From positions 3,858 to 67,857 of the forward strand of contig JBJOPW010000001.1 in the NCBI GenBank assembly GCA_046050355.1: 64,000 bases of DNA. The letters run 5' to 3'. Origin of the DNA: Candidatus Parcubacteria bacterium (GTDB lineage: Bacteria > Patescibacteriota > Minisyncoccia > Phycocordibacterales > UBA918). Every line of letters begins with the position of its first letter. Positions within the stretch are counted from its first letter, which is position 1. This document shows, in pieces, positions 3,751 to 55,714 of this stretch. Under the pieces are notes generated by a model. It saw only the letters and a program-made list of their open reading frames with translations. It made no database searches and was not told where the DNA came from. A program made the position numbers and the translations under genes.

Positions 3751-5151
3751 TTATTGTGATAGCATAATGTTACTAAATTGCCACGGATCCGTTTTGTCGT
3801 TTGTTGGTTTCCAGTCTGTATATGCACCAAAAACTTTTCCTAAGTACGGTTCTTGAATTGCGAGACAAAACTCATGATCCATTTCCTCTACTTCAACAAT
3901 GCCACAGTGTGGATTCTCGAGCATCCAATGAATACCAGCAATAACTGCAGATGTAACCTGAAGACCCGTTGCGTTTTGGTGCGGTGCTAGAGCCTTTGCT
4001 TCCTCAGTAGAGAGTTTTGAGCCATACCAGTATGCATTTTTGTTGTGTCCAAACAAAAGCACACCGAGTTCATCAAAACCGTCTGAAATTTCTCCTTCTG
4101 TGAGTACAGTAAAAGTATCGAATGAAGTAATTCCTTTGCTCGTGAGACGATTCAATGCTTCGACTGTCGCATCACATGGCCGATAGGCATAGTGCACCGT
4201 CGGTCGGTAGATGACTTTCCCAGATTCATCTCTAACAGTGAGATAATCACTTAGAGACAAGGCCTCGTTATGAGTCACGAGGTATGCTTCGACTTCACCG
4301 TGTGTTGGTACCCAAGTGCGTACCTTTGTTTTCGCTCCGACAGAATCTAGGAATATGCCACACGCCTGTGGGTCTTCATGGTGCTCTGCACCGATGGGTA
4401 ATTCTTGTTCGTGGGTACCCCATCCAAGTTCTGCCGGTTGCAGTGCTTCGGATATTAATCCTTCTACCGACCACGTGTTTACGAATTTTGTTTCTGGAAC
4501 AGTTGTCATTGTAGTTTGGTCATCGCGTTCTGCAATATGTATTCCAACTACACCCAGTTTCTGTGCTAAGTTTGACCATTCACCTCTCGTTTTTGGGATC
4601 TCTGTTACTGTATTGGTATCACGAGCAATTTGTAATAAGGCACGCTTCACCAACCACGAAACCATACCAGGGTTAGCGCCACAGCACGATACCGCTGTAG
4701 GACCTGATGCACTTAGTTCTGTTCGTAGGCTGAGCACTTCCTTACGCAGGTGATAATTGGTTCGTTCGTGTGCGGGTCGATTAAAGTCATCGTATACGCC
4801 AGGCCATGGCTCTACTACTGTATCGATATAGAGAGCATTTCTTTTGTTTGCATAGCGCATGAGCGAAACCGAAGATACTTCAACCGAAAGATTGATAATA
4901 ATCGCTTGTTCTGCGCTCTGCTGAATAATACTGTCTAGGACGTCTTCGTAATTAGATGGTTTTAGTCCAAGATGAAGGTGTGAATATTTGTGGCCGGTAC
5001 CATAATCAAGTTGGCTGAGTTTTGGTTCGATGATTGTGATTTGATTTTCTTGAAAGCTAAAGTGCTTTTCAAAAAGAGCCAAAACCCCTCTACCAATTGA
5101 TCCATAACCAACAAATATGACTGGCCCTTTTACCACGTTCACAGACTTCAT
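3751..5151 (-). CDS. hss: homospermidine synthase (NAD-dependent, saccharopine-dehydrogenase-like fold)
   Basis: N-terminal [23 protein letters not shown] Rossmann motif, [44 protein letters not shown] and C-terminal [10 protein letters not shown]...TDPWQFSNI all match bacterial HSS as I recall it. Confidence 0.8.
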
Positions 5152-28062: not shown

Positions 28063-30912
28063 CTAGACCACGATAATGTTGAGTATTTTGCCAGGGATGT
28101 AGATAACTTTGCTAATAGTTCCCCCACTCACGTACTTGCTAATGTTGTGGTCTCCACGGGCGAGTTCTAGTGCCAGACTTTCCGCTGCGTCTTTGGAAAC
28201 AGTGATGTTACCGCGGAGCTTACCATTGACTTGTACCCCAATCACCACCTCAGTATCTTCGGCGAGACTGTCGTCCCCTACCGGATAGGTTTCCAGGTGG
28301 ATACTCGTACTGTGGCCGAGTTCCTGCCAGATCTCTTCGGTGAGGTGTGGAGCAAATGGTGCCAAAAGTCGCACGAATAGTTCGTATGATTCTTTTGTTA
28401 ATCCAACTTTTTCGGCGACGTTCACAAAAATCATCATGGCACTGATAGCGGTGTTAAACTTAAAATCAGCGATATCATTCCCTACTTTGATAATGGTCTT
28501 GTGTAACTGGCGGGTCACTTCAGCACTTTCCTCCCCACGTACATGTTCTGATAGTCCGTACACCCGTTCGAGGAAGCGGCGGATACCGGCGATACCACCC
28601 ATATCCCACGGATAATTGCTCCCTTCATACGGTCCCATGAAGGCAAGATACATTTTGACGGTATCTGCCCCCACCAATTTCACTTGTTCGTCGGGGTCAA
28701 TCACGTTCCCTTTACTCTTACTCATCTTGTTGCCGTCAGGGCCAAGGATAAGACCGCGGTTGATACGACGGCGGTATGGCTCACTTTCGGTCACAAGCCC
28801 AAGGTCAAAGAGCGCCTTCTGCCAGAAGCGTGAATAGAGGAGGTGCATGGTGGTGTGTTCAGCCCCACCAAAGTAGATATCAATGGGCATCCAGTCTTTT
28901 TGCTTTTCAAGGCTCGCGAGAGCATTACCGTTTTGGTTGTCGAGATAGCGGAGGAAGTACCAGGAAGAGTCCACGAAGGTGTCCATGGTCTCAACTTCAG
29001 GTGTCCAGCCTTTGCCAAATATTTCTTCGGTTCGTTTTTTCAGCACCTCACTTTTCGCGAGCGGTGGCTCACCGGTTGGCGTGAAGTCGACATCCTCGGG
29101 GAGCGTCCAGGGGAGATGTTCTTCGGGAACGATATGGGCCTCGCCCTCTGGACTGTAGACAATCGGGATTGGGACACCCCAGTAGCGCTGCCGGCCGATA
29201 GACCAGTCGCGGAGACGATAGGTCGAGGTCATGCGACCACGGACTTTTTCAACGATTTTTTCCTTGGCCTCCTCGCTGTCCATGCCGTCAAATTCAGCCG
29301 AATTACAGAGATTACCTTTGCCGGTAAACGGTATATTTGTATCAAGTTGTGCCAAGGCGTATTTTGCTTCATCAAGAGTGAGTTTTTCAAAGAGTTCTGA
29401 TTTAGTTAGCCAAACTGGTTCTTGTTTTTCCATTTCTTCGACTGGAATTTCATGCTGAATGTCAGACGTAAGTTCAAGTAATACCCGTCGGCTCGTAAGC
29501 GACCGATTAACTTTTTTACCAGGATGATAAAAATGTGCCTCAGTTTCTTCTGTTAAGAAACGGACGAATTTTGTTTCGTAGCCCATTTCTTCGCGAGTCT
29601 CACGAATAGCCGCTTCTTCATAGGACTCACCGTCTTCCATTCCGCCAAAAACAAAATCAAAGTTATTGAACTCGTGACTATGCTGCACCAAATATTTGTC
29701 AGTCTTGGGATCGTAGACTATGGCCCCAACTGCGGTGCGAGGTACAGGGTTTGGTAATGGCTCACCAAAAACCTTTCGAACTACCTGCCGTACTGGCAAA
29801 CCAAATTTCTTCGCAAACTCACCATCGCGTTCATCATGGGCTGGTACGGCCATAATGGCGCCGGTACCATAGCCGCCAAGGACGTAGTCCGCGACAAAGA
29901 CCGGAATCACTTCCCCACTAGCTGGATTCGTAGCTGTTACTCCTTCGAGCTTGACCCCAGTCTTTTCTTTGGTGGCATCGAGACGGTCTTGTTCATCCTT
30001 TTGCTTGGCCTTGGCTACATAGGCATCGACTTCAGCCAAGTTCGAGGTCTTGCCTCGAACTTCCTCCGTACTGAGAAGTGGGTGTTCAGGAGCGAGTACA
30101 AGATACGTGGCGCCATAGAGTGTGTCTGGACGCGTCGTAAACACTGTCACCTCACCTAGGACATCCGATGTCCTAGGTGAGGTGTTTTCTGAGTTTGCGT
30201 GAAGGGTGAAGTTGATTTCGGCACCGCGGGAGCGGCCAATCCACTGGCGCTGAGCTTCTTTGATATGTTCGGGCCAATCAAGAGCAGCGAGGTCGTCAGT
30301 GAGTCGGTCAGCGTACTTGGTGATTCTGAGCATCCACTGTGGCATCTCGCGCTTCTCAATCATGTCACCCGAACGCTCACAGGTACCATCGGCGAGCACC
30401 TGTTCGTTGGCTATCACCGTATTACACCCCGGACACCAGTTCACCACTCCTTTGCCGCGGTAGGCAATGCCGTTATTAAAAAATTGGGTGAACATCCACT
30501 GCGTCCATTTGTAGTAGCTCTCGTCCGTACTTGAGGCGGTCTTGTCCCAGGCGAACATGTTGCCCATACTGGCGAGCTGTTCACGCATGTACGCCATGTT
30601 GTCGTAGGTCCAGGTCTTAGGGTTGAGGCCGCGCTTGATAGCGGCGTTCTCAGCTGGTAGACCAAAAGCGTCAAAACCCATTGGGAAGAGTACTTGTTTG
30701 CCTTGCATACAGCAAAAGCGAGCGTAGATATCGGGTACGGCAAAGGCGTACCAGTGACCGATATGGAGGTTCCCAGACGGGTATGGCCACTCGACGAGAA
30801 TGTATTCTTTGTCCTTGGCAGTGTCGCGCGCACCGACGTCGTAGAGTTTATCGGCTTGCCACTGGTGTTGCCACTTTTTTTCGATGACACCACTATCAAA
30901 TTTTTTGTGCAT
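28063..30912 (-). CDS. leuS: leucine--tRNA ligase with an inserted NUDIX hydrolase domain
   Basis: HIGH-type motif HIGHWYAF; KMSKS; editing-domain AVPAHDERDGEFA. A roughly 130-aa insertion after GLPVRQVV carries a perfect Nudix box GGMEDGESYEEAAIRETREEMGY. At 949 aa it is about 100 aa longer than typical LeuRS. Confidence 0.9.
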   Translation of the reverse strand: MHKKFDSGVIEKKWQHQWQADKLYDVGARDTAKDKEYILVEWPYPSGNLHIGHWYAFAVPDIYARFCCMQGKQVLFPMGFDAFGLPAENAAIKRGLNPKTWTYDNMAYMREQLASMGNMFAWDKTASSTDESYYKWTQWMFTQFFNNGIAYRGKGVVNWCPGCNTVIANEQVLADGTCERSGDMIEKREMPQWMLRITKYADRLTDDLAALDWPEHIKEAQRQWIGRSRGAEINFTLHANSENTSPRTSDVLGEVTVFTTRPDTLYGATYLVLAPEHPLLSTEEVRGKTSNLAEVDAYVAKAKQKDEQDRLDATKEKTGVKLEGVTATNPASGEVIPVFVADYVLGGYGTGAIMAVPAHDERDGEFAKKFGLPVRQVVRKVFGEPLPNPVPRTAVGAIVYDPKTDKYLVQHSHEFNNFDFVFGGMEDGESYEEAAIRETREEMGYETKFVRFLTEETEAHFYHPGKKVNRSLTSRRVLLELTSDIQHEIPVEEMEKQEPVWLTKSELFEKLTLDEAKYALAQLDTNIPFTGKGNLCNSAEFDGMDSEEAKEKIVEKVRGRMTSTYRLRDWSIGRQRYWGVPIPIVYSPEGEAHIVPEEHLPWTLPEDVDFTPTGEPPLAKSEVLKKRTEEIFGKGWTPEVETMDTFVDSSWYFLRYLDNQNGNALASLEKQKDWMPIDIYFGGAEHTTMHLLYSRFWQKALFDLGLVTESEPYRRRINRGLILGPDGNKMSKSKGNVIDPDEQVKLVGADTVKMYLAFMGPYEGSNYPWDMGGIAGIRRFLERVYGLSEHVRGEESAEVTRQLHKTIIKVGNDIADFKFNTAISAMMIFVNVAEKVGLTKESYELFVRLLAPFAPHLTEEIWQELGHSTSIHLETYPVGDDSLAEDTEVVIGVQVNGKLRGNITVSKDAAESLALELARGDHNISKYVSGGTISKVIYIPGKILNIIVV
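29355..29760 (-). other. NUDIX hydrolase domain embedded in LeuS (approximate DNA span)
   Basis: Gx5Ex7REUxEExGU is fully satisfied; the segment is flanked by LeuRS-alignable sequence on both sides. Confidence 0.7.
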
Positions 30913-42003: not shown

Positions 42004-45000
42004 ATGCATAATCTATGGTTTTTCTTCTTACGTAAGCAAGAATTTAGTTGGCTTGTCATCCTGACCCTGATTGCGCTTGGGGTGTATGCACTTATTGCCA
42101 TCCCGAAGGAAGCCTCGCCTGAGGTAATTGTGCCGGTGGGTATTGTGACGACTGTCTACCCTGGTGCCTCTGCTCGTGATATCGAGGAACTTATCACCAA
42201 TCGCCTTGAAGACGCAATTGAGAATGTTGACGATATCAAAGAAATCACCTCAACGTCACGTGATGGTGTGTCTTCAATCACCGCTGAGTTTAATGCTTCA
42301 GCCAACATCGACGATTCAATCCAGGCACTGAAGGATGCCATTGATACCGCCAAGGCTGAACTCCCGCGCGATGCTGAAGACCCCATTGTGTCTGAGGTGA
42401 ACTTTGCCGATCAGCCGATTTTTGTTATCTCGATTTCTTCTGATGCTACTCCGGCCGATTTCACGACGCTCAGTGAGACTTTAACCGATGAGTTCAAAGA
42501 TGTGCTCGGTGTGAGTAAGGTTGATGTTCAGGGTGTTCGCCCTCGTCAGGTACAGGTCGTCATTCCACCTGAGCGTCTCACGGCTTTTGGTGTAACCTTA
42601 AACGATGTCACTGGAGCACTAGCTCAGAGTAACAATGGCTTCCCGGTTGGTGCTATCACTGCCGGTGGCGTTGAGTACAGTGTACGTCTGGAGGGTAAAC
42701 TTTTGACCCCGAAGGATGTCGAAAATGTCATTGTCACAACCAAAGCTGGTACACCGGTCTATCTCAGTGATGTCGCGACCGTGGTCGAGACTGTCGACGA
42801 AGCTTCGTCGCTCGCTCGCGTGTCGGTGGGTGGCCAACCGTCAGAACTGGCGATGACCATCTCGATTTACAAAAAGTCTGGGGTGAATGTCACGACGATG
42901 TCCGACGCCGTGAACGAAAAGCTCGCTGCTATGCGGGCAGAGGGAGGACTCCTCGCCAGCTCACAGGTACTCGTTATCTTTGACCAGGGAGAAGATACTA
43001 AAGAGCAGCTGAATGAACTCGTGAAGGCTGGTGCCGAGACGGTAGTCCTCGTGATGATTTCGCTCCTCCTCACTATCGGGTGGCGTGAATCAGTGGTGGC
43101 TGGTCTCTCGATCCCCCTCTCATTTGTGATTGCCTTTATTGGACTCTATGCTTCAGGGAACACGATTAACTTCCTTTCTCTCTTTGCGCTTATCCTCGCG
43201 GTCGGTATCCTCGTGGACTCCGGCATTGTGGTGACCGAAGCCATCCATACACGCCTCAAACGTACTGGCAACCCACTGAAGGCAGCTCAAGAAACTATTC
43301 GTGAGTACGCCTGGCCGCTGATTGCTGGTACGATGACAACAGTAGCGGTATTCGCTCCCCTCTTCTTCCTGTCCGGCATTGTTGGACAATTTATTGCCTC
43401 AATTCCGTTTACGATTATCTTCGTACTGATTGCGTCGATTATTGTAGCGCTTGGGATGGTGCCGCTCATCGCAATTCTCTTTACGAGTAGTAAAGCACCA
43501 AACCGCTTCGAAGTAATGCAAGAGCACTACACCGAACTCGCTCAGGCGTGGTACCGTGCGCACCTCGTAACCTTCCTCCAGAACTTCCGTGCCCAACGCT
43601 GGTTCTTGTGGTCACTCTTTGGCGGCTTCTTGCTAGCGCTTCTGTTGCCAATTTCGGGGCTTCTTAGTGTTATTTTCTTCCCGCCGGAAGACGTTGACTT
43701 TATTTATATCGACATTGAAGCCAAAGAAGGGACTCCGCTTGCTGTTACTAATGTTGCTGTTCGTCAGGTGGAAGAGCTGCTCTACGAAGTGCCAGAAATT
43801 GAATCTTTCTCATCAGCTGCCGGTGGTGGTTCGGCCTTTACTGGATCTGGTGCCGCTGATGCCCGCTACGGTAACGTCACTGTCGCCCTCAACAAAGAGC
43901 GCGAGCGCTCGAGTGCCGAAATCTCGACTGATCTCCGCGCCAAACTCGCTACTATCAAGGACGTAACGGTGGCAATTACCGAACAGCAAAATGGCCCACC
44001 AACTGGGGCACCCATCTCATTTACTTTTACTGGAGATGATATGAATGCGCTTGCTAAAGCGGCTGAAGATACGAGTCTTCTTCTCGAAAATGAGAAGGGC
44101 GTCCGAGATGTCACCAGTAGTGCGGACTCTAGTTCGGCTGAGTTTGTCCTTCGGATTGATAATGCCAAGGCCAGCCTCCTTGGTGTCAATTCAGCGAGTG
44201 TTGGTCCAGTCCTCCGGGCGGCGGTGTATGGACTCACGGCGACTACCCTCCGCCGTGATGGTGACGATATCGATGTGGTGGTACGTCTTGGTAACCCAGA
44301 TGAGATTCTCAGTTGGTCGACGACACCAGAGATTACCCTTGATACCCTCCGCAATATCCAAGTACAGACTATGACGGGTGAGACAGTCCTCCTTGGGTCT
44401 CTCCTCACGGACGACTATACGCCAGCGAACTCCGCAATTAATCACAAGGCCAAGGAACGAATTGTGACCGTTGATGCCTTTACCGCAGGCGATGTCACCG
44501 CGACAGAAATTGTGGCCGCGATTACTCCACAGGTGCAAGCAATCGCCAAGAACAATGGTGTTACGCTTTCTCTCGGTGGTGAAGCCGAAGATATCAATCA
44601 GTCATTTACCGAGATGTTCCTGGCCTTGATTGCCGGACTTCTCCTCATGCTTGCGATCCTCGTACTTTCCTTCAACTCTGTCCGCTACTCGTTCTACCTC
44701 CTGCTCGCCGTACCATATTCACTCATTGGTGTGTTTGTCGGTCTAGCTGCCACTGGATTGGCACTGTCGTTCACCTCGCTCCTGGGGGTGATTGCGCTCG
44801 CTGGGGTGATTATCAACCATGCGATTATTCTCATGGACTCACTGATCACCGCGAAGGCGTCACACGGTACTACCGGATCACTCATTGATCAGGTAGCTGA
44901 TGCGTCAGTATCACGACTTCGTCCAATCTTCCTTACGACCATTACTACGGTCGTGGGTATGATCCCACTCTCACGCATCTCAGACTTCTGGAGTCCACTG

Positions 45001-45171
45001 GCGTTTGCGATTATGTTTGGACTTTCCTTTGCGATGGTGTTAACGCTCGTTCTGATTCCAACCTTGTATTACCGTAACGAACTACGCTTACGTGAAGGTC
45101 GCCGAGGGATATTTTTCCGGTTTGGAGCGTGGCTATTCACCCAGGGTGTACGCTTCTATCGCTGGCTATAA
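42004..45171 (+). CDS. efflux RND transporter permease (AcrB/HAE1-like)
   Basis: 1055 aa with 12 TM in a 1+5 / 1+5 arrangement and two large periplasmic loops, typical of RND. Confidence 0.85.
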   Translation: MHNLWFFFLRKQEFSWLVILTLIALGVYALIAIPKEASPEVIVPVGIVTTVYPGASARDIEELITNRLEDAIENVDDIKEITSTSRDGVSSITAEFNASANIDDSIQALKDAIDTAKAELPRDAEDPIVSEVNFADQPIFVISISSDATPADFTTLSETLTDEFKDVLGVSKVDVQGVRPRQVQVVIPPERLTAFGVTLNDVTGALAQSNNGFPVGAITAGGVEYSVRLEGKLLTPKDVENVIVTTKAGTPVYLSDVATVVETVDEASSLARVSVGGQPSELAMTISIYKKSGVNVTTMSDAVNEKLAAMRAEGGLLASSQVLVIFDQGEDTKEQLNELVKAGAETVVLVMISLLLTIGWRESVVAGLSIPLSFVIAFIGLYASGNTINFLSLFALILAVGILVDSGIVVTEAIHTRLKRTGNPLKAAQETIREYAWPLIAGTMTTVAVFAPLFFLSGIVGQFIASIPFTIIFVLIASIIVALGMVPLIAILFTSSKAPNRFEVMQEHYTELAQAWYRAHLVTFLQNFRAQRWFLWSLFGGFLLALLLPISGLLSVIFFPPEDVDFIYIDIEAKEGTPLAVTNVAVRQVEELLYEVPEIESFSSAAGGGSAFTGSGAADARYGNVTVALNKERERSSAEISTDLRAKLATIKDVTVAITEQQNGPPTGAPISFTFTGDDMNALAKAAEDTSLLLENEKGVRDVTSSADSSSAEFVLRIDNAKASLLGVNSASVGPVLRAAVYGLTATTLRRDGDDIDVVVRLGNPDEILSWSTTPEITLDTLRNIQVQTMTGETVLLGSLLTDDYTPANSAINHKAKERIVTVDAFTAGDVTATEIVAAITPQVQAIAKNNGVTLSLGGEAEDINQSFTEMFLALIAGLLLMLAILVLSFNSVRYSFYLLLAVPYSLIGVFVGLAATGLALSFTSLLGVIALAGVIINHAIILMDSLITAKASHGTTGSLIDQVADASVSRLRPIFLTTITTVVGMIPLSRISDFWSPLAFAIMFGLSFAMVLTLVLIPTLYYRNELRLREGRRGIFFRFGAWLFTQGVRFYRWL

Positions 45172-45870: not shown

Positions 45871-46638
45871 CTAGAATGCTTGTTCTGACCAATTGAGTGA
45901 ATGGACAGCCACACCTGTTTCAGTCATCGTTCCTTTAACTTCTGCGTAGGCAGCTTCTTTGAATGTTGTTTCGTCGCAGGTGGTAGTGACACCGGCGATC
46001 TGGCAGGTGCTTGAAGCTGTTACGAGCAGTGGTACAACGTGCCCACGGGTACCATTTTCAGTAAATACCAAATGCCATTTTGTATTATCAAACGGAGCCG
46101 GTACATTCTTCAACAGTTGTCCTTTGGTATCAAAACTAAACTCCCGTGCCTCGAGCACGTCACCCGTAGAGCAATTGATGGCAGTGATCACCCAGTCCTG
46201 TCCTACCACTTCCATAGTCACCACGGCATACCCACTTGGTGTACCAGTGGCAAATTTTGACATCACCATGAGCTCTACTTCAGTCGGGAGTTTGTGCACG
46301 TATTTCATTCTCAATTTATCGGGCGTTGCACTCTGACAAAGCAGTGGATCAGAGGCTCCTCCGGTGTTGAGGTCAGCAATAAGCTTGTCTTTTACGGTGC
46401 TGGTGAGTATCGTTTGGCTAAGGAGAATATTATCTGGTTTAACTTTACCATTGGTCTTGGTTTCTTCGAGCCAGGCGTTATAAAAGTCAAAAGCAACATC
46501 TAATGCATCGGGAAGTTCACGAACCTGATCGTTCTTAACGGTCAGTGATGTGCTGTACCACAAGAGTGAACAGAGCGCCAAAAGTCCCAAGACAAAGCCT
46601 GCATAAATAATATACTGCCGTTTGTTTACTGTTTGCAT
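45871..46638 (-). CDS. hypothetical N-terminally anchored secreted/membrane protein
   Basis: TM segment YIIYAGFVLGLLALCSLLWY, then a 220-aa domain with several Cys. Confidence 0.5.
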   Translation of the reverse strand: MQTVNKRQYIIYAGFVLGLLALCSLLWYSTSLTVKNDQVRELPDALDVAFDFYNAWLEETKTNGKVKPDNILLSQTILTSTVKDKLIADLNTGGASDPLLCQSATPDKLRMKYVHKLPTEVELMVMSKFATGTPSGYAVVTMEVVGQDWVITAINCSTGDVLEAREFSFDTKGQLLKNVPAPFDNTKWHLVFTENGTRGHVVPLLVTASSTCQIAGVTTTCDETTFKEAAYAEVKGTMTETGVAVHSLNWSEQAF

Positions 46639-46717: not shown

Positions 46718-47782
46718 TTGAAGGACCGCTTTGTCCATAGGCCAAGCATAAAAACCGGTACATGGTATACTCTAAAAATGTCACCGAAACAGAATTGGAG
46801 CACAAAGAACACTGAATTTCGAGGTAATGGAAAAAATATTCCGCTGCATAGGTACGTGCTTCTGGCTGTGCTTATGTCTACGTTCATGATTGTTTGGCAC
46901 TATGTTAAGTTAATTCACTCAACCGACCCAAATTCAGACAATGAATACTTTGCTGTGCCAAATACTGAACAACAAAGTCAGTTCGCATACTCAACAACAA
47001 GTAATTCAATCTATCGATCAAATGCACCTCAAAGTAACTTCCAAAAAGTTAGCGGTACGCTTATGTGCGGTAGTGAGGTTGTGTCTAATGACCCGTCATT
47101 AGAGCTGACAGATTGTTCATTCTTGAAAAATCGCGAAATTAGATTGTACTGCCCTGGTTCATATCGCGATGACAATCGGCTATATATTGCACCATCCGAG
47201 TCTTGTTTGGGCTGGTTTTCAATTGATGTTAACTCAATTAAAACTCTGTCATCATTGTACTTTGCTGATCGTGATAATGTATACACTGCAATAAATGGCA
47301 TTGACACTAATGTGATTAAAATTGTATCAACTGAACCTGAAACATTTAAAGTTTTAAGTGTTGGGTTTGCAAGTGCAAGCGACAAGTTGCTCTTTGCCTA
47401 TAATCTGATGGGACGAAGCAGCTCTCCTGTTATCCCTGATGCAGACCCAAGCACCTTTTCAATCATAAATAGTTACTACGCAAAGGATAGTAAACAGGTA
47501 TATTTTATCCGACCTCCGAAACATGAAGGATTTCCTGAAGTAACTGTTGCTAGTGCTATAGATGCTCAAACCGCGTCAATACTCTCTACTGAGTGGCCTG
47601 AATTAATAGCCGATGACACAAGTGTCTATCTCTACGGCCTCGCCGAGCAAGGTATTGATGCGCGTACATTTAGAATTTCATCAACTACAGGAGATGTTGC
47701 AATTGCAACAGATAACCTGCGAGAATACTTCATTAAACGAAGTGGTGACGACACAAGGCTCGTTCAAATCACTGTACGTTAA
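46718..47782 (+). CDS. DKNYY-repeat domain protein, N-terminally membrane anchored
   Basis: Repeated YFADRDNVYTAI / YAKDSKQVYFIR / VYLYGLAEQG motifs resemble DKNYY repeats. The gene is visibly AT-rich relative to the window. The start may be the Met at 46778. Confidence 0.5.
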   Translation: MKDRFVHRPSIKTGTWYTLKMSPKQNWSTKNTEFRGNGKNIPLHRYVLLAVLMSTFMIVWHYVKLIHSTDPNSDNEYFAVPNTEQQSQFAYSTTSNSIYRSNAPQSNFQKVSGTLMCGSEVVSNDPSLELTDCSFLKNREIRLYCPGSYRDDNRLYIAPSESCLGWFSIDVNSIKTLSSLYFADRDNVYTAINGIDTNVIKIVSTEPETFKVLSVGFASASDKLLFAYNLMGRSSSPVIPDADPSTFSIINSYYAKDSKQVYFIRPPKHEGFPEVTVASAIDAQTASILSTEWPELIADDTSVYLYGLAEQGIDARTFRISSTTGDVAIATDNLREYFIKRSGDDTRLVQITVR

Positions 47783-47989
47783 GGAAAAACACTAGCTACC
47801 TTTTCTTCGCAAATAGAAACAAGGAAATATATAATATTGATCTTCAACTACAAGGATCGTTTCTTATATAGCCAGTACAATGTGTAACGTAAACGAATCG
47901 GTTACCAGTCACTTAGTACATTTGTTCGCTTCGCTCCAAATATAATAAGTTAAGTGTTGATGACTCGTAAGAAGCAAGATTGATTGTTT

Positions 47990-48235
47990 CTCACTACTGG
48001 TCCTTACAGGACCAGTACACCTTGTGGTTATAATTATTTCGCTACGCTTATAATCTAACTCACAAGGTCTTCGATTCCCCCGTAACGGAATCGGTCACGC
48101 TCATGGGTTTTCATTCGCTTTGCTCATAAAACCTCATTCGCCCGACCCGGACTGTTCCGGCCCTAAAGGGGACCACGGAACAGTCTTTCGATTCCCCTAA
48201 GGTCTCACAATGACAACGACCGCAATGCATGCGCA
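47990..48235. repeat. hairpin-dense region beside tRNA-Ala(GGC) containing two inverted partial copies of the tRNA 3-prime end
   Basis: Stem-loops CTGGTCC-TTACA-GGACCAG, GGACTGTTCCG...CGGAACAGTC and GACCGCAATGC-ATGC-GCATTGCGGTC. The + strand carries TTCGATTCCCCC at about 48069 and TTCGATTCCCCTAAGGTC at about 48189, the reverse complement of the tRNA gene strand. Confidence 0.7.
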
Positions 48236-48252
48236 TTGCGGTCGGTCATATG

Positions 48253-48325
48253 TGGACCTTAGGGGAATCGAACCCCTCACCTCTTCCATGCCATGGAAGC
48301 GCTCTACCAAATGAGCTAAAGGCCC
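48253..48325 (-). tRNA. tRNA-Ala (anticodon GGC)
   Basis: Manual fold GGGCCTT / D-arm GCTC..GAGC / anticodon stem CTTCC-ATGGCAT-GGAAG / T-arm AGGGG-TTCGATT-CCCCT / AAGGTCC-A. G3:U70 Ala identity pair is present; no encoded CCA. Confidence 0.85.
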
Positions 48326-48363
48326 GGTGCGTACGATTCTATCATGAAAAATAATGCGAGCAA

Positions 48364-49404
48364 CTAGAGAATCAGCATCGCATCGCCAAAGGAATAAAAC
48401 CGATAGTGTTCCCTGATGGCTTCTTCGTAGAGCTCGACGATATGTCGCCGGCCACCCTTATGCTCGATATACGCCTGTACGAGACACATAAGTGACGAAC
48501 GCGGTACATGGAAGTTCGTCATGAGGATATCTGGATACGTAAAGGCATACGGCGGATAGATAAAGAGGTCTGCCGCACCGACTGTTCCCTGTCCTGCTGC
48601 CACACTTTCTTTGCTACTCTCGAGTGTGCGCACCACCGTGGTACCTACTGCCATGATTGGTCTCCCTGTGTCTCGCGCTCTCTTGATGCGCTCTGCAGTA
48701 GTGTCTGGCACGACGTAATATTCTTCGTGCAGTTTCTTATTTTGGAAATTCTCGGCAAATATTGGTGCAAAGGTACCAAGTCCGGCCTGGAGGGTAACCG
48801 GATCGATTGAAACTCCATTTGCTTTGAGAGTAGCTATTAGTTCCGGGGTGAAGTGGAGCGACGCTGTTGGTGCGGCGACTGATGGTGCGGCTGCTGCAAA
48901 TACTGTCTGGTAGTCCGTTCGCTTCAGGGACTCCTCGGCGCTACTCTTGATATATGGCGGCAGTGGTGTCTCGCCATGGGCAAGGAGGAGAGCATGGAGG
49001 AGTTCTTCCTTACCTTCAAACTTGAGCACCATACTCTTTTCACGGTTATCTACTACCGTGAAGTACGTATCAAACACTTCAATTGTCTCTCCGACCGCGA
49101 CGCCACGATTCACGAGTGCTCGCACGGCACCATCGGGATTTATCCCCTGGTCGACGAGGATGAGGAGTTCTATTGGTGAACCATCATAGACACCCTGTAG
49201 CCGAGCAGGTAGTACCTTGGTATCGTTCACTATTATCGCTGCTCCAGCGACAAACTGTGGCAAGTCGCTAACCCGAGCGTGCGTCACGGTATCGTGCTTC
49301 GTATCGTAGACTAACAACCGTGCACTATCACGTGGTGTGGCTGGTGCGTGCGCAATCAGATCTGTCGGAATCTCGTAGGCAAATTGATCGAGAATAGTTT
49401 CCAT
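48364..49404 (-). CDS. queA: S-adenosylmethionine:tRNA ribosyltransferase-isomerase
   Basis: The N-terminus FAYEIPTDLIAHAPATPRDSARLLVY...VNDTKVLPARL parallels QueA. Confidence 0.85.
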   Translation of the reverse strand: METILDQFAYEIPTDLIAHAPATPRDSARLLVYDTKHDTVTHARVSDLPQFVAGAAIIVNDTKVLPARLQGVYDGSPIELLILVDQGINPDGAVRALVNRGVAVGETIEVFDTYFTVVDNREKSMVLKFEGKEELLHALLLAHGETPLPPYIKSSAEESLKRTDYQTVFAAAAPSVAAPTASLHFTPELIATLKANGVSIDPVTLQAGLGTFAPIFAENFQNKKLHEEYYVVPDTTAERIKRARDTGRPIMAVGTTVVRTLESSKESVAAGQGTVGAADLFIYPPYAFTYPDILMTNFHVPRSSLMCLVQAYIEHKGGRRHIVELYEEAIREHYRFYSFGDAMLIL

Positions 49405-49860: not shown

Positions 49861-50346
49861 AACCGTATACTACCACTATCAGTCAGGGGGACAACTTGAC
49901 AGAGTGTCTATTTCAGTCGAGTTTACATGCAAAAAGGCCTTTTCAAGCTATTGACATCTCCCACTTTTATTTTGCTATACAGTATTTTCACACCCGACAA
50001 AGCAGGAGGAAAATTGAGTTGTGTTTTTGAAAAGTTATTGTGTGGTATAGATAGACATCGTCATCCCTTTACCAATTTGTTTCAAGTGAAAAGCGCCCAG
50101 GGTAAGCCATGGGCGCTTTCAGGCGGGTTAATTCCCGCAGGCACTAGTTACTGTTTGCTTCGATACAAGCAGCACGGGTCGTGTGAATGAACCCGTATTT
50201 GTCGACATAATATGTCTTTTGCATGTGTGTACTCCTCTGGTTAAAAAACGTAGTTCCCAGAGGCTCTTCAAATCTTTACATCGTATAAAGTAAGCCTCTG
50301 TAGAGGCAGTAAACCACAGGATTATTGATTTTGCAATTGCCAGAAA

Positions 50347-50643
50347 TCAGCTTTTAATTTTATTTCGGATTTGTGCAATCACGAGACCCAACCCCATAGC
50401 CATTAACGAAAATATAATCATTGCTGTATATGGATTACTAAATACATCTTGCGGCATTATATTGATTTTAGTGAGAGCTGTGTATGTCAGCGCTACAAAT
50501 GCAAAACCCCAAAAGAAAGATTGGATAATGTGACCAAATTCACTTTTAAATTCAAACCCACCTACGGCTAAAAGAAAGTACCCTGGAATAGAAAAAAGTA
50601 CTAGATGCAAAATCTCAAGATTTTCTAAGTTGAACATTTCCAT
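50347..50643 (-). CDS. hypothetical small membrane protein (3 TM), last gene of the defence-like operon
   Basis: Start moved to MEMFNLENL so that it abuts the stop of the upstream nuclease gene instead of overlapping it. Confidence 0.45.
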   Translation of the reverse strand: MEMFNLENLEILHLVLFSIPGYFLLAVGGFEFKSEFGHIIQSFFWGFAFVALTYTALTKINIMPQDVFSNPYTAMIIFSLMAMGLGLVIAQIRNKIKS

Positions 50644-50644
50644 A

Positions 50645-51814
50645 TTATTTATTACCTTTCGCAATATTATGTGGTCTACATAGCATCTGACAGTTCTTAA
50701 TATCAGTTGGCCCATTTTTGCTCCAGGCAGTTACATGATCAGCATCCATTTCTTTGAGCTGCCAAATTTTGTCTTTGTTTACATCATGACCAACTGCGCA
50801 AAGTGGACAGTTTGAGATTCCTGTCTTCTTCGCATCAGCAGTTTGCGCTTCATATACAACGCGTTTTGTTGATTCCTCAAAGACTCGTAGTTCAAGCAAT
50901 TTTGCATCCACTTCCCCGCCGAGGACATATTCAAAGATGCCGGATCGTTTTTTTACGAAACCATCAGCATAGAGTCGTTTAACTGCAGCAGACACAGCTA
51001 TAGGATCGTATTTGGTCTTGTGGTATGTCTTATACAGGCGGTGCCACTCGAGACCTTTCATTTCATTTTCAACGTCTGTAAACGTGGTCGAAATCCAATC
51101 AATTACCTTATTGAAATGCTTTTTTAGTTCGGTGATCTCAGTATCGTGACGATGGAGACTCATGTAGTTGTCTATTGCTCCATCAGACACCCAATCTAGA
51201 GTAGTTTCGAGGTATGCTTGACGTTTGATGTCTCCCTTTAGATACGCACTCCATTTCTGTACGTTCGCATTTTGACTGTTGCTAAACTCACTGCGTGCGA
51301 GCGTGACAAACGGACCGGAATACACCGCGTTAAGGATCTCTTGCTGTGTAAGTGGTACACCCGATATATTAATAGTGCGGAACCAGTCTTTGATCTCTGG
51401 TTCATCTCCTTCGCAGATATAGATATGGAGCTTTGTTTTGAGAATTTGCTCCCGTTGACTACTAGCCATACCACTATAGTATTGCTCGTGACCATTTTTA
51501 TCTTTCACTGCAAATTTGCCTGTGACAAAACGACCGATACTTGTGATGCGCTGTTGACCATCAAGTACGTCAAAGGTGTCTTTGCCAGTTTTGTTGAAAT
51601 AGAACAGACCAATTGGATAGCCTTTCAGTAGAGATTCGATGACTAAAATTTCTCGTTTACCTCCATCTTCTGCATATATGTAGTTGCGTTGATACTCAGG
51701 CTGTATGGTTAGCTTCCCAGATAAGCCAAAGAGGCCCTTACCTTCAAGTTCACTGTATTCAAATCCTTCGCTGATTTCGCGAATGGTAATGTCACTTCGT
51801 AAAAGGGTTTTCAT
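50645..51814 (-). CDS. DUF262 (ParB/Srx-like NTP-binding) - HNH endonuclease fusion, GmrSD-like
   Basis: N-terminal QPEYQRNYIY and VLDGQQRITSI (the DGQQR signature of DUF262). C-terminal CPLCA...DADHVTAWSKNGPTDIKNCQMLCRPHNIAKGNK is a canonical HNH motif with a zinc-binding Cys. Confidence 0.75.
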   Translation of the reverse strand: MKTLLRSDITIREISEGFEYSELEGKGLFGLSGKLTIQPEYQRNYIYAEDGGKREILVIESLLKGYPIGLFYFNKTGKDTFDVLDGQQRITSIGRFVTGKFAVKDKNGHEQYYSGMASSQREQILKTKLHIYICEGDEPEIKDWFRTINISGVPLTQQEILNAVYSGPFVTLARSEFSNSQNANVQKWSAYLKGDIKRQAYLETTLDWVSDGAIDNYMSLHRHDTEITELKKHFNKVIDWISTTFTDVENEMKGLEWHRLYKTYHKTKYDPIAVSAAVKRLYADGFVKKRSGIFEYVLGGEVDAKLLELRVFEESTKRVVYEAQTADAKKTGISNCPLCAVGHDVNKDKIWQLKEMDADHVTAWSKNGPTDIKNCQMLCRPHNIAKGNK

Positions 51815-51816
51815 AT

Positions 51817-53010
51817 TTACTTTTGTTTGTGTTTTATTAAGACTCTTTGGTATACCTTTTCACGTAAGCCATTTTTTACTAATACACCACTTGCATTTAA
51901 ATCGTATGTTCCAGGTTTTCCAAATTTGTCATAATACGCTTGTTTACACTCTGTAGATGTATATATTTTTGTTTTTTGTTTATATAAATCTTCATTTTCA
52001 CACATCCCAACAATTTCAAATTGTTCTGGGGAATACTTGTCTAAAAAACTAATCGGAACACCCATTACACCATTGTAATCACTCGGTATTGCGCTCGTAA
52101 ATGAAACTTCAAGTGCATCATAATTTTCATATTTATCATACGTACTTTTACCCTGCAATTTTTTGTTGAATTTTAAATTGTCAGCAATAGTCATTAATGA
52201 TAAAGGTCTATGTCTACGACCATGATCTAGATTAGTAAACCAACATGAATTTCCTAATCGCGTATAGTCACCTATATATCCAAGTCTAGCGGCCTTTTCT
52301 TTGTCTTCTTTTGCAATGTCTGCACCATTAGGTACTGCAAACACCATGTCGCTACCATTTCCAGTTGCGCCTAACCAAAGTTGATTTGCCTTAATTAAAG
52401 AAAAAATTTCTTTATATGTTATTGCGTTCATATTGCCAATAATAAGAACCTTTTTTTTATTCACAAAAAGTTGTGATACATACTCTCGAAACAAACTAAA
52501 AGGAGGATTGGTTACTACAATATCTGATTGTTTCAGTAACTCTACACATTCTGGACTACGAAAGTCACCGTCACCTTCCAATGGTGTCCATTCATTGTTC
52601 TTATTAGCTTTGAGTTGCTTCGCGATATCAGCGAGTGTAAAAGACCCATCACCATCAACATCGCCTACTTCGTTGATGATGAATTTGTTGGCTGTGATTT
52701 TTGGGCGACCTTTTACTGGTTCAAGGGTGAGATCATCACCAAAAAGTCCTATCTGGGTATTTGCAACCGGCGATGGTTTGTAACTTGTCGTAATAAGTGA
52801 CTTAAGTCCAAGACGTTTGAAATTGAGAACAAAGTATCTGAAAAAATTGCTTTCAAATGGGTCATCGCAGTTGCAATAGACTACTTTATCTTTGAAAGTG
52901 TTTTTGTCGTATTCGAGATAGGACTCAACTTCTTTTTGAATATCAGAAAACTGCGTATAGAACTCGTCGTTCTTTGCCTTTTTTGCCGCAGTGAGATTCT
53001 TATTTGCCAT
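51817..53010 (-). CDS. N6-adenine DNA methyltransferase, EcoRI-methylase family
   Basis: KNDEFYTQFSDI...KVVYCNCDDPFESNFFRYFVLNF..LGLKSLITTSY and DIVVTNPPFSLFREY parallel M.EcoRI closely, as I recall it. The start was moved to MANKNL. Confidence 0.8.
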   Translation of the reverse strand: MANKNLTAAKKAKNDEFYTQFSDIQKEVESYLEYDKNTFKDKVVYCNCDDPFESNFFRYFVLNFKRLGLKSLITTSYKPSPVANTQIGLFGDDLTLEPVKGRPKITANKFIINEVGDVDGDGSFTLADIAKQLKANKNNEWTPLEGDGDFRSPECVELLKQSDIVVTNPPFSLFREYVSQLFVNKKKVLIIGNMNAITYKEIFSLIKANQLWLGATGNGSDMVFAVPNGADIAKEDKEKAARLGYIGDYTRLGNSCWFTNLDHGRRHRPLSLMTIADNLKFNKKLQGKSTYDKYENYDALEVSFTSAIPSDYNGVMGVPISFLDKYSPEQFEIVGMCENEDLYKQKTKIYTSTECKQAYYDKFGKPGTYDLNASGVLVKNGLREKVYQRVLIKHKQK

Positions 53011-53011
53011 A

Positions 53012-53404
53012 CTATAGTATATTACTATATTCTGGATAATGCTCGGTGATGAGCTTTTGCCAAGCGGCAGTTTCATTCTTACTTGCGAGATCGGTCTTGC
53101 TATATACAAGCAAGACCGATACTCGATGTTCTTCAGTGTGCCAGGCTACAATGGTGCGGTTGCCTGATGTTTTAGCAGATTCTTTGGTACCAACGACGCG
53201 GAATTGCGTTTTGATAATTTTTATAGTTTCAGTTTCTGAAATAATTGTTGCCTTATCTGTCTGTAGTAATGCTTCAATACGCGTCAACTCGGCTATGATA
53301 GCGTCGAGTGTTACATCCCAGTGATGTTTGTATTTTTTAGCAAATGACTTGAGAAAATGGCTCGTTGCAAAGTCTTCTATCACTACTACAGCATTGCCAG
53401 ACAT
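53012..53404 (-). CDS. putative toxin (RelE/ParE-superfamily-like fold) partnered with the Panacea-domain antitoxin
   Basis: 130 aa. The C-terminal GNRTIVAWHTEEHRVSVLLVYSKTDL resembles the RelE/ParE tail. It sits immediately downstream of the antitoxin-like gene. Confidence 0.45.
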   Translation of the reverse strand: MSGNAVVVIEDFATSHFLKSFAKKYKHHWDVTLDAIIAELTRIEALLQTDKATIISETETIKIIKTQFRVVGTKESAKTSGNRTIVAWHTEEHRVSVLLVYSKTDLASKNETAAWQKLITEHYPEYSNIL

Positions 53405-53416
53405 ACCTAACCGTTG

Positions 53417-54154
53417 TTAGAACACTTTATCAGGGTCTTCTTGGGTAATAAGAGCGTATGGTATAAGCTCATCAATTTTGCATATCGTATACGGTAGTTG
53501 GTTGTGAGTGAAATTGACGATATCAATAGTCTTTTTATCTTTCCATTTTGTACCGATTTTTTTCATCAGTTTTACTTCGTCAGAACTGAGTGTAGATATC
53601 TTCTCATTAGTGTTTGATTCTGATTCACTAATAAGGAACATCGTACGACCTTTGTCGTCGGTCTTTCGATCAATGAGAATTTTTCCGGCATCTTCTAATT
53701 CGTCGATGGCACGGAAAAAAGCATCCGGCACTGGGCCATGTTCGATCTTGCGATACTGCATGCCACTCATGCTACTCATGGTATCGTAAAACCATGCAAA
53801 GTCAGCTAGGTAGAGTAACTTTGCTAGTTTGGTCTTCGGAATTTTGCTGTCAGGAGAAAGATTCATTCGCAAGTACGTCAGTATCATATGCTTGTACTTT
53901 TGGATATTGGGAATATTTCCTGATAGCAAGTCATCGACGCTCAGTGCGTACAGATTAGCTAGTTTCTTCACTTCGTCAGTATCGAGTTTTTGTTTGCCTG
54001 ATTCAACAGCAGCGTAGGTTGGGCGAGAGACACTGATGGCATTTGCGACTTCTTCTTGTGACAGCTTATTTTTAATACGCAAATCTTTGAGAATCCTCTG
54101 CATATACATGGTCATATGACCAAGTATATGCAGATATGTAAAAAAGTCAAGCAA
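53417..54154 (-). CDS. HTH-XRE plus Panacea (DUF4065/SocA-like) domain antitoxin
   Basis: N-terminal LKDLRIKNKLSQEEVANAISVSRPTYAAVESGKQ is a Cro/C1-type HTH. The C-terminal KLAKLLYLADFAWFYDT...IEHGPVP matches the Panacea domain. The start may be the Met at 54103. Confidence 0.65.
   Translation of the reverse strand: MLDFFTYLHILGHMTMYMQRILKDLRIKNKLSQEEVANAISVSRPTYAAVESGKQKLDTDEVKKLANLYALSVDDLLSGNIPNIQKYKHMILTYLRMNLSPDSKIPKTKLAKLLYLADFAWFYDTMSSMSGMQYRKIEHGPVPDAFFRAIDELEDAGKILIDRKTDDKGRTMFLISESESNTNEKISTLSSDEVKLMKKIGTKWKDKKTIDIVNFTHNQLPYTICKIDELIPYALITQEDPDKVF
54110..54123. promoter_or_regulatory. perfect palindrome TGGTCATATGACCA at the 5-prime end of the antitoxin gene; candidate autoregulatory operator
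   Basis: Read directly. Confidence 0.4.
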
Positions 54155-54265
54155 AAAATGTCAGAAAACTGACAAAATTAGATTTTATTGGCAGAATAGC
54201 AGTTAATCAATAGATAAAGTTTGTAGGCACAGAGACACCTAGTATGAGTGATTTAAGAGGTATAA

Positions 54266-55292: not shown

Positions 55293-55400
55293 AATAGCGC
55301 TATGGTAGCACTGGGAGGTAGGTTTCTCAATATTTTGTGGTTGATTAGTAACCTTATGGCTTCAACATCGGCACGGAAGCCATGACTGACCCGAGAAGTT

Positions 55401-55416
55401 CGTCCTGACGGTCACA
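55401..55416 (-). repeat. direct partial copy (15 of 16 nt) of the tRNA-Ala(UGC) 3-prime end
   Basis: + strand GACCCGAGAAGTTCG versus GACCCGAGAAGATTCG at the tRNA 3-prime end (55643-55658). Confidence 0.6.
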
Positions 55417-55514
55417 AAGCTATATTATTTCGCAATGCTCATAATCTAGCAGGTGCCGCGGGACACGCCTCGACCGTCGTACTCGCTAACGCTCCGTGCG
55501 ACATGTCTCCGGCG

Positions 55515-55570
55515 TTCGAATCTTCACGCAAGGTGCATTAGCACCTTGCTTCGGGTCCACTTTCGACGCA
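55515..55570 (+). repeat. inverted copy of the last 21 nt of tRNA-Ala(UGC), split by a 25-nt hairpin insertion
   Basis: + strand GTTCGAATCTTC[ACGCAAGGTGCATTAGCACCTTGCT]TCGGGTCCA versus the tRNA sense GTTCGAATCTTCTCGGGTCCA. Confidence 0.7.
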
Positions 55571-55602
55571 AGCAAATTCATTTGCTTGCTAGACAACAAA
55601 AA

Positions 55603-55622
55603 AACCACCTTGCTAGGTGGTT
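55603..55622 (-). terminator. rho-independent terminator of tRNA-Ala(UGC)
   Basis: AACCACC-TAGCAA-GGTGGTT then TTTTTTTGTTG on the minus strand, 20 nt beyond the tRNA 3-prime end. Confidence 0.75.
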
Positions 55623-55641
55623 CTTTTGTTGTCTTCGAAAG

Positions 55642-55714
55642 TGGACCCGAGAAGATTCGAACTCCCTGCCTCCTCAGTGCAAATGAGGCGCTCTACCAAG
55701 TGAGCTACGGGCCC
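55642..55714 (-). tRNA. tRNA-Ala (anticodon UGC)
   Basis: Manual fold GGGCCCG / GCTC..GAGC / CCTCA-TTTGCAC-TGAGG / GGGAG-TTCGAAT-CTTCT / CGGGTCC-A, with G3:U70; no encoded CCA. Confidence 0.85.

Follow-up and report, generated by a model that had tools for sequence, protein, structure and literature searches.

Structured cassettes carrying mirror copies of tRNA 3' ends behind two tRNA-Ala genes of a Parcubacteria genome: a tentative case for a tRNA-directed mobile element

What has shaped the 3' flank of the tRNA-Ala(GGC) gene on contig JBJOPW010000001.1 of a Candidatus Parcubacteria bacterium (assembly GCA_046050355.1)? Within the 64-kb stretch of this contig that was analysed (64,000 nucleotides, positions 3,858 to 67,857, here called the window), a preliminary description had pointed to a hairpin and two inverted copies of the tRNA 3' end next to this gene, followed by an AT-rich gene for a DKNYY-repeat protein, and had taken the ensemble for remnants of site-specific recombination at a tRNA. 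Here, we observe that the inverted copies are the conserved end of a structured unit, which is non-coding, strongly folded, ~120-190 bp long and located in the 3' flank of the tRNA. Such units, which we call cassettes, also occur behind tRNA-Ala, tRNA-Asp and tRNA-Met genes of related genomes. The family is apparently undescribed, being absent from Rfam and from the literature that we searched, in which no account of such tRNA-flank elements turned up. Rfam 15 was searched with the whole window at the gathering threshold and locally at E-values up to 10; no family matched the cassettes, the tRNA was the sole match, and all other scores stayed far below threshold. We tentatively favour the reading, with somewhat less than even confidence, that the cassettes are non-autonomous mobile or recombining elements which target tRNA genes at their T-loop and 3' flank.

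The nearest genomes to the window are metagenome-assembled genomes of Paceibacteria/Nomurabacteria. Relatives were gathered by two routes, via the QueA protein and via a 255-aa protein encoded next to the locus, and their loci are labelled L001-L124. In relatives whose 255-aa neighbour protein shares 43-66% identity with that of the window, a hairpin and an inverted copy of the 3' end again come after tRNA-Ala(GGC).

The tRNA-Ala(GGC) of the preliminary description was recovered by both ARAGORN and Rfam. It does not encode the CCA end, carries the G3:U70 pair and is 100% identical in L001. The first inverted copy is exact over 18 nt, as had been stated: TTCGATTCCCCTAAGGTC occurs at 48187-48204 on the plus strand and, within the tRNA, at 48255-48272 on the minus strand. 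Two matches of this 18-mer stand against 0.04 expected, a number reached in 0 of 100 shuffles. The second copy is present as well, namely as an exact 11-mer (TTCGATTCCCC, 48070-48080) at 117 nt from the first, instead of the 12 nt and 120 nt given before; the 11-mer has three copies in the window (0.04 expected; 0 of 100 shuffles). The perfect hairpin between tRNA and copy has a stem of 12 bp and not 11. Pairing of the tRNA 3' end with its inverted copy had been anticipated, and it reaches further than was supposed: complementarity does not end after the 18 nt but continues, interrupted by small bulges, across the trailer and into the hairpin, and all these parts make up one large palindrome (Table 1).

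The same architecture is found in 12 loci with four tRNA identities, where it ranges from 38 to 66 bp and from -58.5 to -104 kcal/mol. The proximal end of the cassette is the reverse complement of the adjacent tRNA tail, from the T-loop across the 3' strand of the acceptor and on into the trailer, and this allows a single hairpin of that length to arise from tail, terminator and copy. The mirror copy is exact over 16-20 nt in eight GGC loci (L001, L085, L089/L091, L093, L094, L109 and the window) and is split by an inserted hairpin at the GGC loci of L099 and L110. Compensatory changes are seen in the hairpin stem among the window, L001, L085, L089 and L094, and in general stems and trailers vary between genomes yet remain complementary. 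Control tRNAs in unrelated (non-Paceibacteria) loci have inverted matches of at most 8 nt within 400 nt downstream. Three independent Logan short-read contigs (L081, L082 and L084) end at or near tRNA-Ala(GGC), L084 inside the gene just before the T-arm. These breaks are probably due to the long palindrome or to sequence shared with the second tRNA-Ala gene; palindromes of 40-66 bp may break short-read assemblies at tRNA genes.

Beyond the mirror copy, the units of the non-coding stretch share the motifs GGAATCGGTCAC and the loop TTCGCNNNGCT. Read on the tRNA strand, a unit starts with the mirror copy, which ends in ...GGGGAATCGAA, and continues with helix P0, in which GGGAATCG is paired with CGATTCC(C); a variable arm A and an arm B with the apical loop GA-[2-bp mini-hairpin]-GAA make up the rest. 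The nucleotides of the resulting three-way junction are conserved (GAAAGCC, GAGGCGGGGTCG, GTGACC). As MAFFT alignments were too poor for an analysis of covariation over the full structure, a covariance model (CM), termed R1, was built from six units. It has 16 matches in 195 kb, every one of them beside a tRNA and on the tRNA strand. In the CM alignment, 86.3% of the cells are paired versus 67.6% in shuffles (0 of 500) and 31-44% in slid controls, and double-sided changes occur at 26 of 36 pairs, the alignment being fitted to the model, such that both figures lean towards structure. The fold of the unit is real and conserved, and covariation supports it. When nhmmer was iterated, the unit seemed to share a wider homology with tRNAs, which turned out to be an artefact, as tRNAs had entered the profile. 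The apical loop of arm B (e.g., 48114-48125 and 47925-47936) holds a 2-bp mini-hairpin of the GCGAAGC type with covarying closing pairs, in the variants GC-GAA-GC, GU-GAA-AC and GC-GUA-GC; on the tRNA strand it matches the sequence of an unusually stable DNA mini-hairpin.

Three units lie in a row behind tRNA-Ala(GGC) and are termed C, B and A with increasing distance from the tRNA. Unit C is intact. Unit B is decayed: it has a hairpin at 47995-48017, another one at 48019-48068 that resembles arm B, and the 11-nt copy of the T-loop segment mentioned above. This copy is now found within a short hairpin (48072-48078 with 48087-48093), and the sequence of 48072-48093, CGATTCC-cccgtaac-GGAATCG, has the appearance of a palindrome that has collapsed. 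Unit A lies farthest from the tRNA and has decayed most; it has an arm B of the subtype seen in L001 and L109a, with 83% arm-B identity to those units, and is also present in the sister genome L124.

A module of the same kind follows the second tRNA of the window, tRNA-Ala(UGC). Its hairpin leads into a T7 tract (U7), and the mirror copy reads GTTCGAATCTTC-ACG-[20-nt hairpin 55529-55548]-CTT-CGGGTCCAC, i.e., it is split at the junction of T-stem and acceptor. It copies the tail of its own UGC tRNA and not the GGC tail. Split copies of the same architecture are found in L110, L109a, L099 and behind tRNA-Asp in L096. The tRNA tail, the terminator and the copy add up to a hairpin of 66 bp and -104 kcal/mol. 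At the distal end of the body (55388-55402, GACCCGAGAAG-TTCG on the plus strand), 15 of 16 positions agree with a direct copy of the tRNA 3' end on the tRNA strand. Arm B of this unit is 86-88% identical to the GGC units of L089/L093/L094, which represent other genera, and only 57% identical to the GGC unit of the window. A GC-rich hairpin followed by a U-rich tract, as expected of an intrinsic terminator, is thus present at both loci; for tRNA-Ala(GGC), the site is terminator-like on the tRNA strand, with the tail TTGTCATTGT as a weak tract (48244-48217, minus strand).

Table 1. Positions and supporting evidence of the features around the two tRNA-Ala genes and of the DKNYY gene (window coordinates)
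Feature	Position	Strand	Evidence or remark
DKNYY gene	46778-47782 (possible TTG start 46718)	+	Pfam PF13644, 45.8 bits vs cut-off 25, E=1.3e-11
Unit A, most distal and most decayed	~47888-47951	-	nhmmer; partial CM match 47910-47951
Unit B, decayed	~47995-48083	-	partial CM match 48017-48069, E=4e-4
Unit C, intact	48084-48204; body 48084-48199	-	CM R1, 110.7 bits, E=3e-25
Unit C, helix P0	48189-48197 with 48087-48093
Unit C, arm A	48150-48185
Unit C, arm B loop			GA-[GC AAA GC]-GAA
Mirror (antisense) copy of tRNA-Ala(GGC) 3' end; proximal end of unit C	48187-48204	-	exact over 18 nt
Large palindrome: tRNA positions ~54-72, trailer, hairpin and mirror copy	48187-48272		39 bp, -66.6 kcal/mol
Perfect 12-bp hairpin	48217-48228/48233-48244	-	terminator-like centre of the large palindrome
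tRNA-Ala(GGC)	48252-48325	-	ARAGORN; Rfam RF00005, 62.4 bits vs threshold 29
Probable extended -10 element of tRNA promoter, TGATAGAAT	48336-48344	-	read from sequence
Body of UGC cassette	55384-55527	-	nhmmer E=1.5e-12; CM 35.3 bits, E=2e-6
Mirror copy of tRNA-Ala(UGC) 3' end	55514-55560	-	sequence, fold
Strong bidirectional terminator hairpin	55590-55636; core stem 55603-55622	both	A-tract before, T-tract after
tRNA-Ala(UGC)	55641-55714	-	ARAGORN; Rfam

Does the copy follow its tRNA in other genomes as well? In L002, the T-stem of the UGC tRNA differs and the mirror copy differs accordingly. In the more distant L096, tRNA-Asp and tRNA-Met each have a unit whose copy matches its own tail. The mirror copy is the Watson-Crick complement of the tRNA 3' strand, with G3:U70 and G4:U69 turned into A:U. 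As the G:U positions appear as A:U, the copy would have been templated from the 3' strand of the tRNA and not from its 5' half. Both L096 units end in a direct repeat of the tRNA tail (exact over 23 nt for Asp and 18 nt for Met), and each is followed by a second terminator. A decayed distal direct repeat is seen in the UGC unit of the window, in L089 (GCTTCGATTCCCCTTC) and in the UGC locus of L001. The GGC, UGC and Asp units become identical to the tRNA again from C56 onwards, within the GTTC box of its T-loop.

The preliminary description had proposed to look for variability of the region between strains, and among the relatives it proved variable indeed: occupancy of the DKNYY slot as well as number, subtype, order and orientation of the units differ. 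At least three subtypes of arm B exist, which track neither tRNA identity nor host relationship. Type I is found in L089 and L093, type II in L099 and type III in L001, the 255-aa neighbour proteins being 81-90% identical; L109 holds two types, and the window has type II followed by type III. The units of L093 and L094 are 95% identical, whereas their neighbour proteins share only 47%. In L085, 2.2 tandem copies of the unit occur with 99% identity, and tRNA-Ala(GGC) is free of units in L095 and L002. A clean inversion of ~290 bp, comprising promoter, tRNA, hairpin and unit, distinguishes L089 (263-552) from L093 (749-1038); the flanks are collinear, the 255-aa proteins are 90% identical, and no flanking inverted repeats were recognised at this inversion. 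Relative to the 255-aa gene, the module points one way in five unit-bearing loci (window, L001, L089/L091, L099, L109) and the opposite way in four (L085, L093, L094, L110). Because of this fast turnover between relatives, the cassette is more than one old integration scar.

What, then, is the acting molecule, RNA or single-stranded DNA? Folding of the tRNA strand is more stable than that of its complement in each of the 13 units tested, by 1-13 kcal/mol. G:U pairs outnumber A:C cells, which would be G:U on the other strand, by 55 to 26 in minimum free energy folds and by 21 to 10 in the fitted alignment, and the loops are purine-rich on the tRNA strand (GA-[mini hairpin]-GAA, with tandem G:A). 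This bias favours, only modestly, a single-stranded form of the tRNA strand, be it RNA or DNA. In several loci, neither strand offers room for a separate promoter of the unit; such room is lacking between terminator and unit and, in L093, also on the other strand upstream of the unit. The motif TGATAGAAT upstream of tRNA-Ala(GGC) is a probable extended -10 element of the tRNA promoter, a function that we assign from its sequence; where the module is inverted in relatives, it travels along with the module, as it lies within the segment inverted between L089 and L093. Another promoter-like site, TTCGCA-18-TATAAT (10 of 12 positions; 47806-47835, plus strand), points into the array from where the DKNYY gene ends, antisense towards the tRNA. 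Both hexamers are kept in L124, at a spacing of 20 nt.

How could such a cassette move, as we infer that it does? It would land at the conserved GTTC box of the T-loop, either within or beside it, and would supply a replacement tRNA 3' end together with a terminator, the old ones being displaced downstream. Repeated landings would let arrays grow on the tRNA side, while older units decay and their palindromes collapse. In the window, this history would have left an intact unit and two decayed ones at tRNA-Ala(GGC), and the single unit behind tRNA-Ala(UGC). The mirror end may be matched to its tRNA by fold-back or template-switch copying, or by gene conversion across the palindrome. A well-preserved cassette ends in a direct repeat of the tRNA tail and a second terminator.

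A Y1/HUH transposase is a possible candidate for the enzyme, and the window encodes a protein of this kind: a gene at 1981-2601 (206 aa, motif NHFHLLV) resembles IS200-like transposases and RAYTs, the tyrosine transposases associated with repetitive extragenic palindromic (REP) sequences. It scores 31 bits with PF01797 (cut-off 23) and 37 bits with NF047646, below the cut-off of 80. Two perfect palindromes of ~50 bp (1909-1965 and 2612-2663) with the common arm TTTAGGGGTCCAACCCCG flank it, an arrangement of gene and inverted palindromes as in REP/REPIN-RAYT systems; the units themselves do not contain the REP sequence. Within the window, TAGGGGTCCAACCCCG was found with up to three mismatches only at the four arms flanking this gene, and it occurs in none of the loci. 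The palindrome arm, TTAGGGG-TCC-AACCCC, is similar to TTAGGGG-AATCG-AACCCC, the T-arm of tRNA-Ala(GGC) in antisense. No homologue of the protein is encoded by the loci fetched from relatives, all of them short stretches. A more far-reaching proposal would see in the cassettes a mobile element of a new, structure-dependent class or else an RNA of a new kind that is coupled to tRNAs. The element would use the T-loop as landing pad, rebuild the tRNA 3' end and template its terminal hairpin from the host tRNA; its enzyme might be a Y1/HUH transposase that has been domesticated and binds hairpins of single-stranded DNA which it recognises by their likeness to T-arms. We consider this proposal rather unlikely in its full extent.

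Several observations weigh against a mobile element. No excision product, no orthologous site empty in one strain and filled in another, and no linkage to a transposase was seen; the RAYT-like gene lies 46 kb away from the units, which lack its palindromes. The direct repeat is missing or decayed at most loci, including the GGC locus of the window. Better folding of the tRNA strand suits RNA as well as single-stranded DNA, and the high conservation of the 18-mer and of the junction nucleotides could equally reflect an RNA function. A fixed mobile element alone cannot explain an end that matches each tRNA, such that an unproven step of templating or gene conversion is needed. Finally, viral contigs gave no units: two pattern scans of IMG/VR returned chance matches only, and a phage origin was rejected on the same grounds.

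The main rival holds that the unit is a functional, structured 3' trailer RNA that is co-transcribed with the tRNA. After read-through of the hairpin, its antisense part would form a long duplex with the 3' half of the tRNA, which could serve as a substrate of RNase III, as a fail-safe terminator or as a signal for quality control; alternatively, it would pair with the distal sense segment of the unit (P0) and free the tRNA, and the three-way junction would serve as a protein-binding or stability module. The location of every unit directly after a tRNA and on its strand agrees well with this model, as do the better folds of that strand throughout, its G:U excess and purine-rich loops, the terminators after the L096 units, the conserved junction nucleotides with their strong covariation, and the joint movement of module and tRNA promoter as one piece. 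We nevertheless regard it as doubtful. Strong canonical terminators separate tRNA and unit at several loci (the U7 tract at the UGC locus of the window, L109/L110, L002), and little read-through is therefore expected. Units are lacking behind many tRNAs and in some relatives, an essential RNA would not be expected to decay in arrays or to swap subtypes among close relatives, no family of Rfam matches, and the strand bias is modest, with an alignment fitted on that very strand. It is improbable, in our view, that the mirror copy is a neutral by-product of template switching. Quasipalindrome correction by template switching is an established mechanism in bacteria; acting in the terminator palindrome, it would extend the hairpin outward step by step and, with the tRNA side fixed, overwrite the downstream side with the complement of the tail, the body hairpins being unrelated extragenic repeats. 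This would account for the perfect Watson-Crick complement including the G:U positions, for a copy that spans the non-functional trailer too, and for arms that vary among species and remain complementary. It leaves unexplained why the outer limit stays at the T-loop in each of four tRNA types, why five loci have a conserved hairpin inserted into the copy at one and the same place, why a direct repeat and a second terminator follow distally, and why the copy is obligatorily linked to a conserved three-way-junction body.

That the copies are classical integrase (att) scars and the DKNYY gene the delivered cargo, as the preliminary description implied, appears very improbable to us, although the idea of recombination at this tRNA stands in part. 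tRNA-Ala(GGC) is a hot spot of recombination and insertion in the clade: in L099 (1001-2700), a 1.65-kb islet of three genes (CsoR/MauE/DUF305), with a degenerate direct repeat of the tRNA 3' end at its boundary, lies between the tRNA and the hairpin with its unit, and in L087 (6441-8083) a 543-aa serine recombinase abuts the tRNA 3' end, its open reading frame (ORF) running into the tRNA gene. Ordinary integration thus also occurs at tRNA-Ala(GGC). Direct tail repeats flank the L096 units, and the DKNYY gene is compositionally foreign and lineage-specific. The copies of the window are, however, inverted and not direct, they belong to a covarying fold, they are exactly conserved in relatives without the DKNYY gene, and the same architecture with its own matching copy recurs at tRNA-Ala(UGC). 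The DKNYY gene lies outside the interval between tRNA and copy and has no flanking repeats, and the integrase that had been suggested as a target of search was not met in a Pfam sweep of the 43 larger ORFs of the window (of ~60 candidate ORFs of at least 100 aa); neither integrase nor recombinase was found there, and among the relatives only L087 has one. Hardly credible, finally, is a guide-RNA-like unit, i.e., a scaffold with an 18-20 nt match to a tRNA gene, by which OMEGA/TnpB/IscB systems or CRISPR-associated transposons would home to tRNA genes. A conserved scaffold does stand next to a variable segment of ~18 nt that changes with the nearby target. No TnpB, IscB, Cas or Tn7-like gene is located next to any unit, however; the neighbours in the window are QueA, the 255-aa membrane-anchored protein, the DKNYY protein and unknown small proteins, and likewise in the relatives. 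Moreover, the supposed guide is broken by a hairpin in five loci, its match runs on into trailer and terminator as a palindrome, and several loci have no visible room for a promoter of its own.

Where does this leave the DKNYY gene? Its atypical composition was borne out (40.1% GC versus a window mean of 48%; GC at third codon positions 33% versus 45-53% in the neighbours). It is located between the unit array and the 255-aa gene, on the distal side of the array. The slot lacks it in L001, L085, L089, L093, L094, L099, L109 and L110, with an unrelated 100-aa gene in its place in L109, and none of the relatives' loci with hairpin and inverted copy has it. The sister genome L124 carries the gene (819-1715) in the same arrangement. 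Between window and L124 it is 95.9% identical, versus 85.9% for the adjacent 255-aa gene and 84-88% for the flanks, which suggests a recent exchange, a recombinational sweep or unusually strong constraint. The search for further att-like repeats gave none flanking the gene. Of the earlier idea of an acquired cargo, lateral acquisition thus looks likely, and the gene is probably a separate insertion and not part of the cassette; given the lack of att repeats and the position beyond the array, its link to tRNA-directed recombination is hypothetical.

The wider setting of the GGC locus is as follows. An AcrB-like pump (42004-45171, plus strand), a 187-aa gene (minus strand) and the gene of the 255-aa membrane-anchored protein (45871-46638, minus strand) precede the DKNYY gene, the 470-nt non-coding stretch and tRNA-Ala(GGC), and queA (48364-49404, minus strand) follows. 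Between queA and the tRNA-Ala(UGC) module, at ~50300-54200, a defence islet of low GC content (35-42%) encodes a protein with GmrSD-N and HNH domains, an EcoRI-type adenine methyltransferase and a protein with a helix-turn-helix domain that resembles SocA/Panacea antitoxins. The contig L081, whose QueA is identical, holds the same islet genes. Elsewhere in the window, the leucyl-tRNA synthetase (28063-30912, minus strand, 949 aa) has a NUDIX domain (residues 391-516) just after its editing domain, an unusual fusion.

If the cassettes are mobile, they colonise tRNA genes without an integrase gene of their own, keep the tRNA intact and adapt their end to each target, which would bear on how tRNA genes turn into plasticity hot spots in bacteria of the candidate phyla radiation with their minimal genomes. 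If they act as RNA, they constitute a tRNA-coupled structured RNA that bears an antisense of its own tRNA, and would point to an unrecognised level of control over tRNA 3' ends, by processing, termination or surveillance, in organisms whose set of RNases is reduced.

Can the cassettes be assigned to anything known? Several identities were considered and rejected. A tmRNA, permuted tmRNA or split tRNA would require the 5' strand of a T-arm, which is missing; ARAGORN reports no tmRNA, the Rfam model tmRNA_permuted scores 12.7 bits on the tRNA T-arm only, and the mirror copy gives A3:U70. The loop motif AGUGAAACG recalls the three-way junction of 5S rRNA, for which there is no Rfam match. GUGCG/GUGAG after the terminator is reminiscent of the 5' end of a group IIC intron; intron domains and an Rfam match are lacking. 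The copy matches the genomic trailer (CACAA) and not the mature CCA end, which speaks against a retroviral-type primer-binding site, and the module is inverted in four relatives, where it faces no gene, which speaks against a riboswitch or leader of a downstream gene. Some likeness exists to tRNA-like RNAs (the tRNA-like domain of tmRNA, the bacterial Y RNA/YrlA and the t-elements of plant mitochondria), as the 5' and 3' ends of well-preserved units, namely the L096 Asp unit and the UGC unit of the window, pair into a helix similar to acceptor and T-stem, which carries the tRNA's own 3' strand, trailer and terminator. In contrast to those RNAs, the cassettes have neither a T-arm hairpin nor G3:U70, and most units have lost the acceptor-like helix.

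Among mobile elements, REP/REPIN sequences with their RAYTs and the derivatives of IS200/IS605 are small extragenic palindromic or hairpin repeats that often double as terminators. The cassettes resemble them as small hairpin repeats after genes, with a strand-biased folding that would suit single-stranded DNA substrates. Unlike REP/REPIN sequences, they occur only behind tRNAs and lack the palindrome that flanks the RAYT-like gene; unlike IS200/IS605 elements, they have direct and inverted repeats derived from the target, which that type of transposition is not known to create. Elements of the latter type insert 3' of a fixed tetra- or pentanucleotide, with neither a target duplication nor terminal inverted repeats; in the GGC, UGC and Asp units, C56 of GTTC marks the distal junction. 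Miniature inverted-repeat transposable elements (MITEs) of the Correia/ERIC type are short and non-coding, have inverted ends, form long RNA duplexes and can act as transcription terminators or as targets of RNase III. The cassettes are likewise short and non-coding, with inverted ends and long duplexes. MITEs have fixed, transposase-binding terminal inverted repeats, short target-site duplications and dispersed copies; the cassettes depart from this, as their ends change with the neighbouring tRNA and their copies, 16 out of 16, are located at tRNAs.

Islands and integrative elements directed at tRNA genes target the 3' end or the T-loop, according to the sublocation classes of their integrases, and cis-mobilizable elements accrete in tandem. 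The cassettes agree with them in their location at the 3' part of the tRNA, in the regenerated tail, in tandem arrays and in variable content, and, in L096 and L099, in a direct tail repeat on the far side; in the window, the copies behind tRNA-Ala(GGC) are inverted. They differ in being units of ~120-190 bp with neither gene nor integrase, in an inverted copy of the tail that leads to a giant hairpin, and in having the same body behind four tRNAs with ends adapted to each. It is this target-adaptive end which, as described here, would set the cassettes apart from integrases, MITEs, REPs and IS200/IS605 elements.

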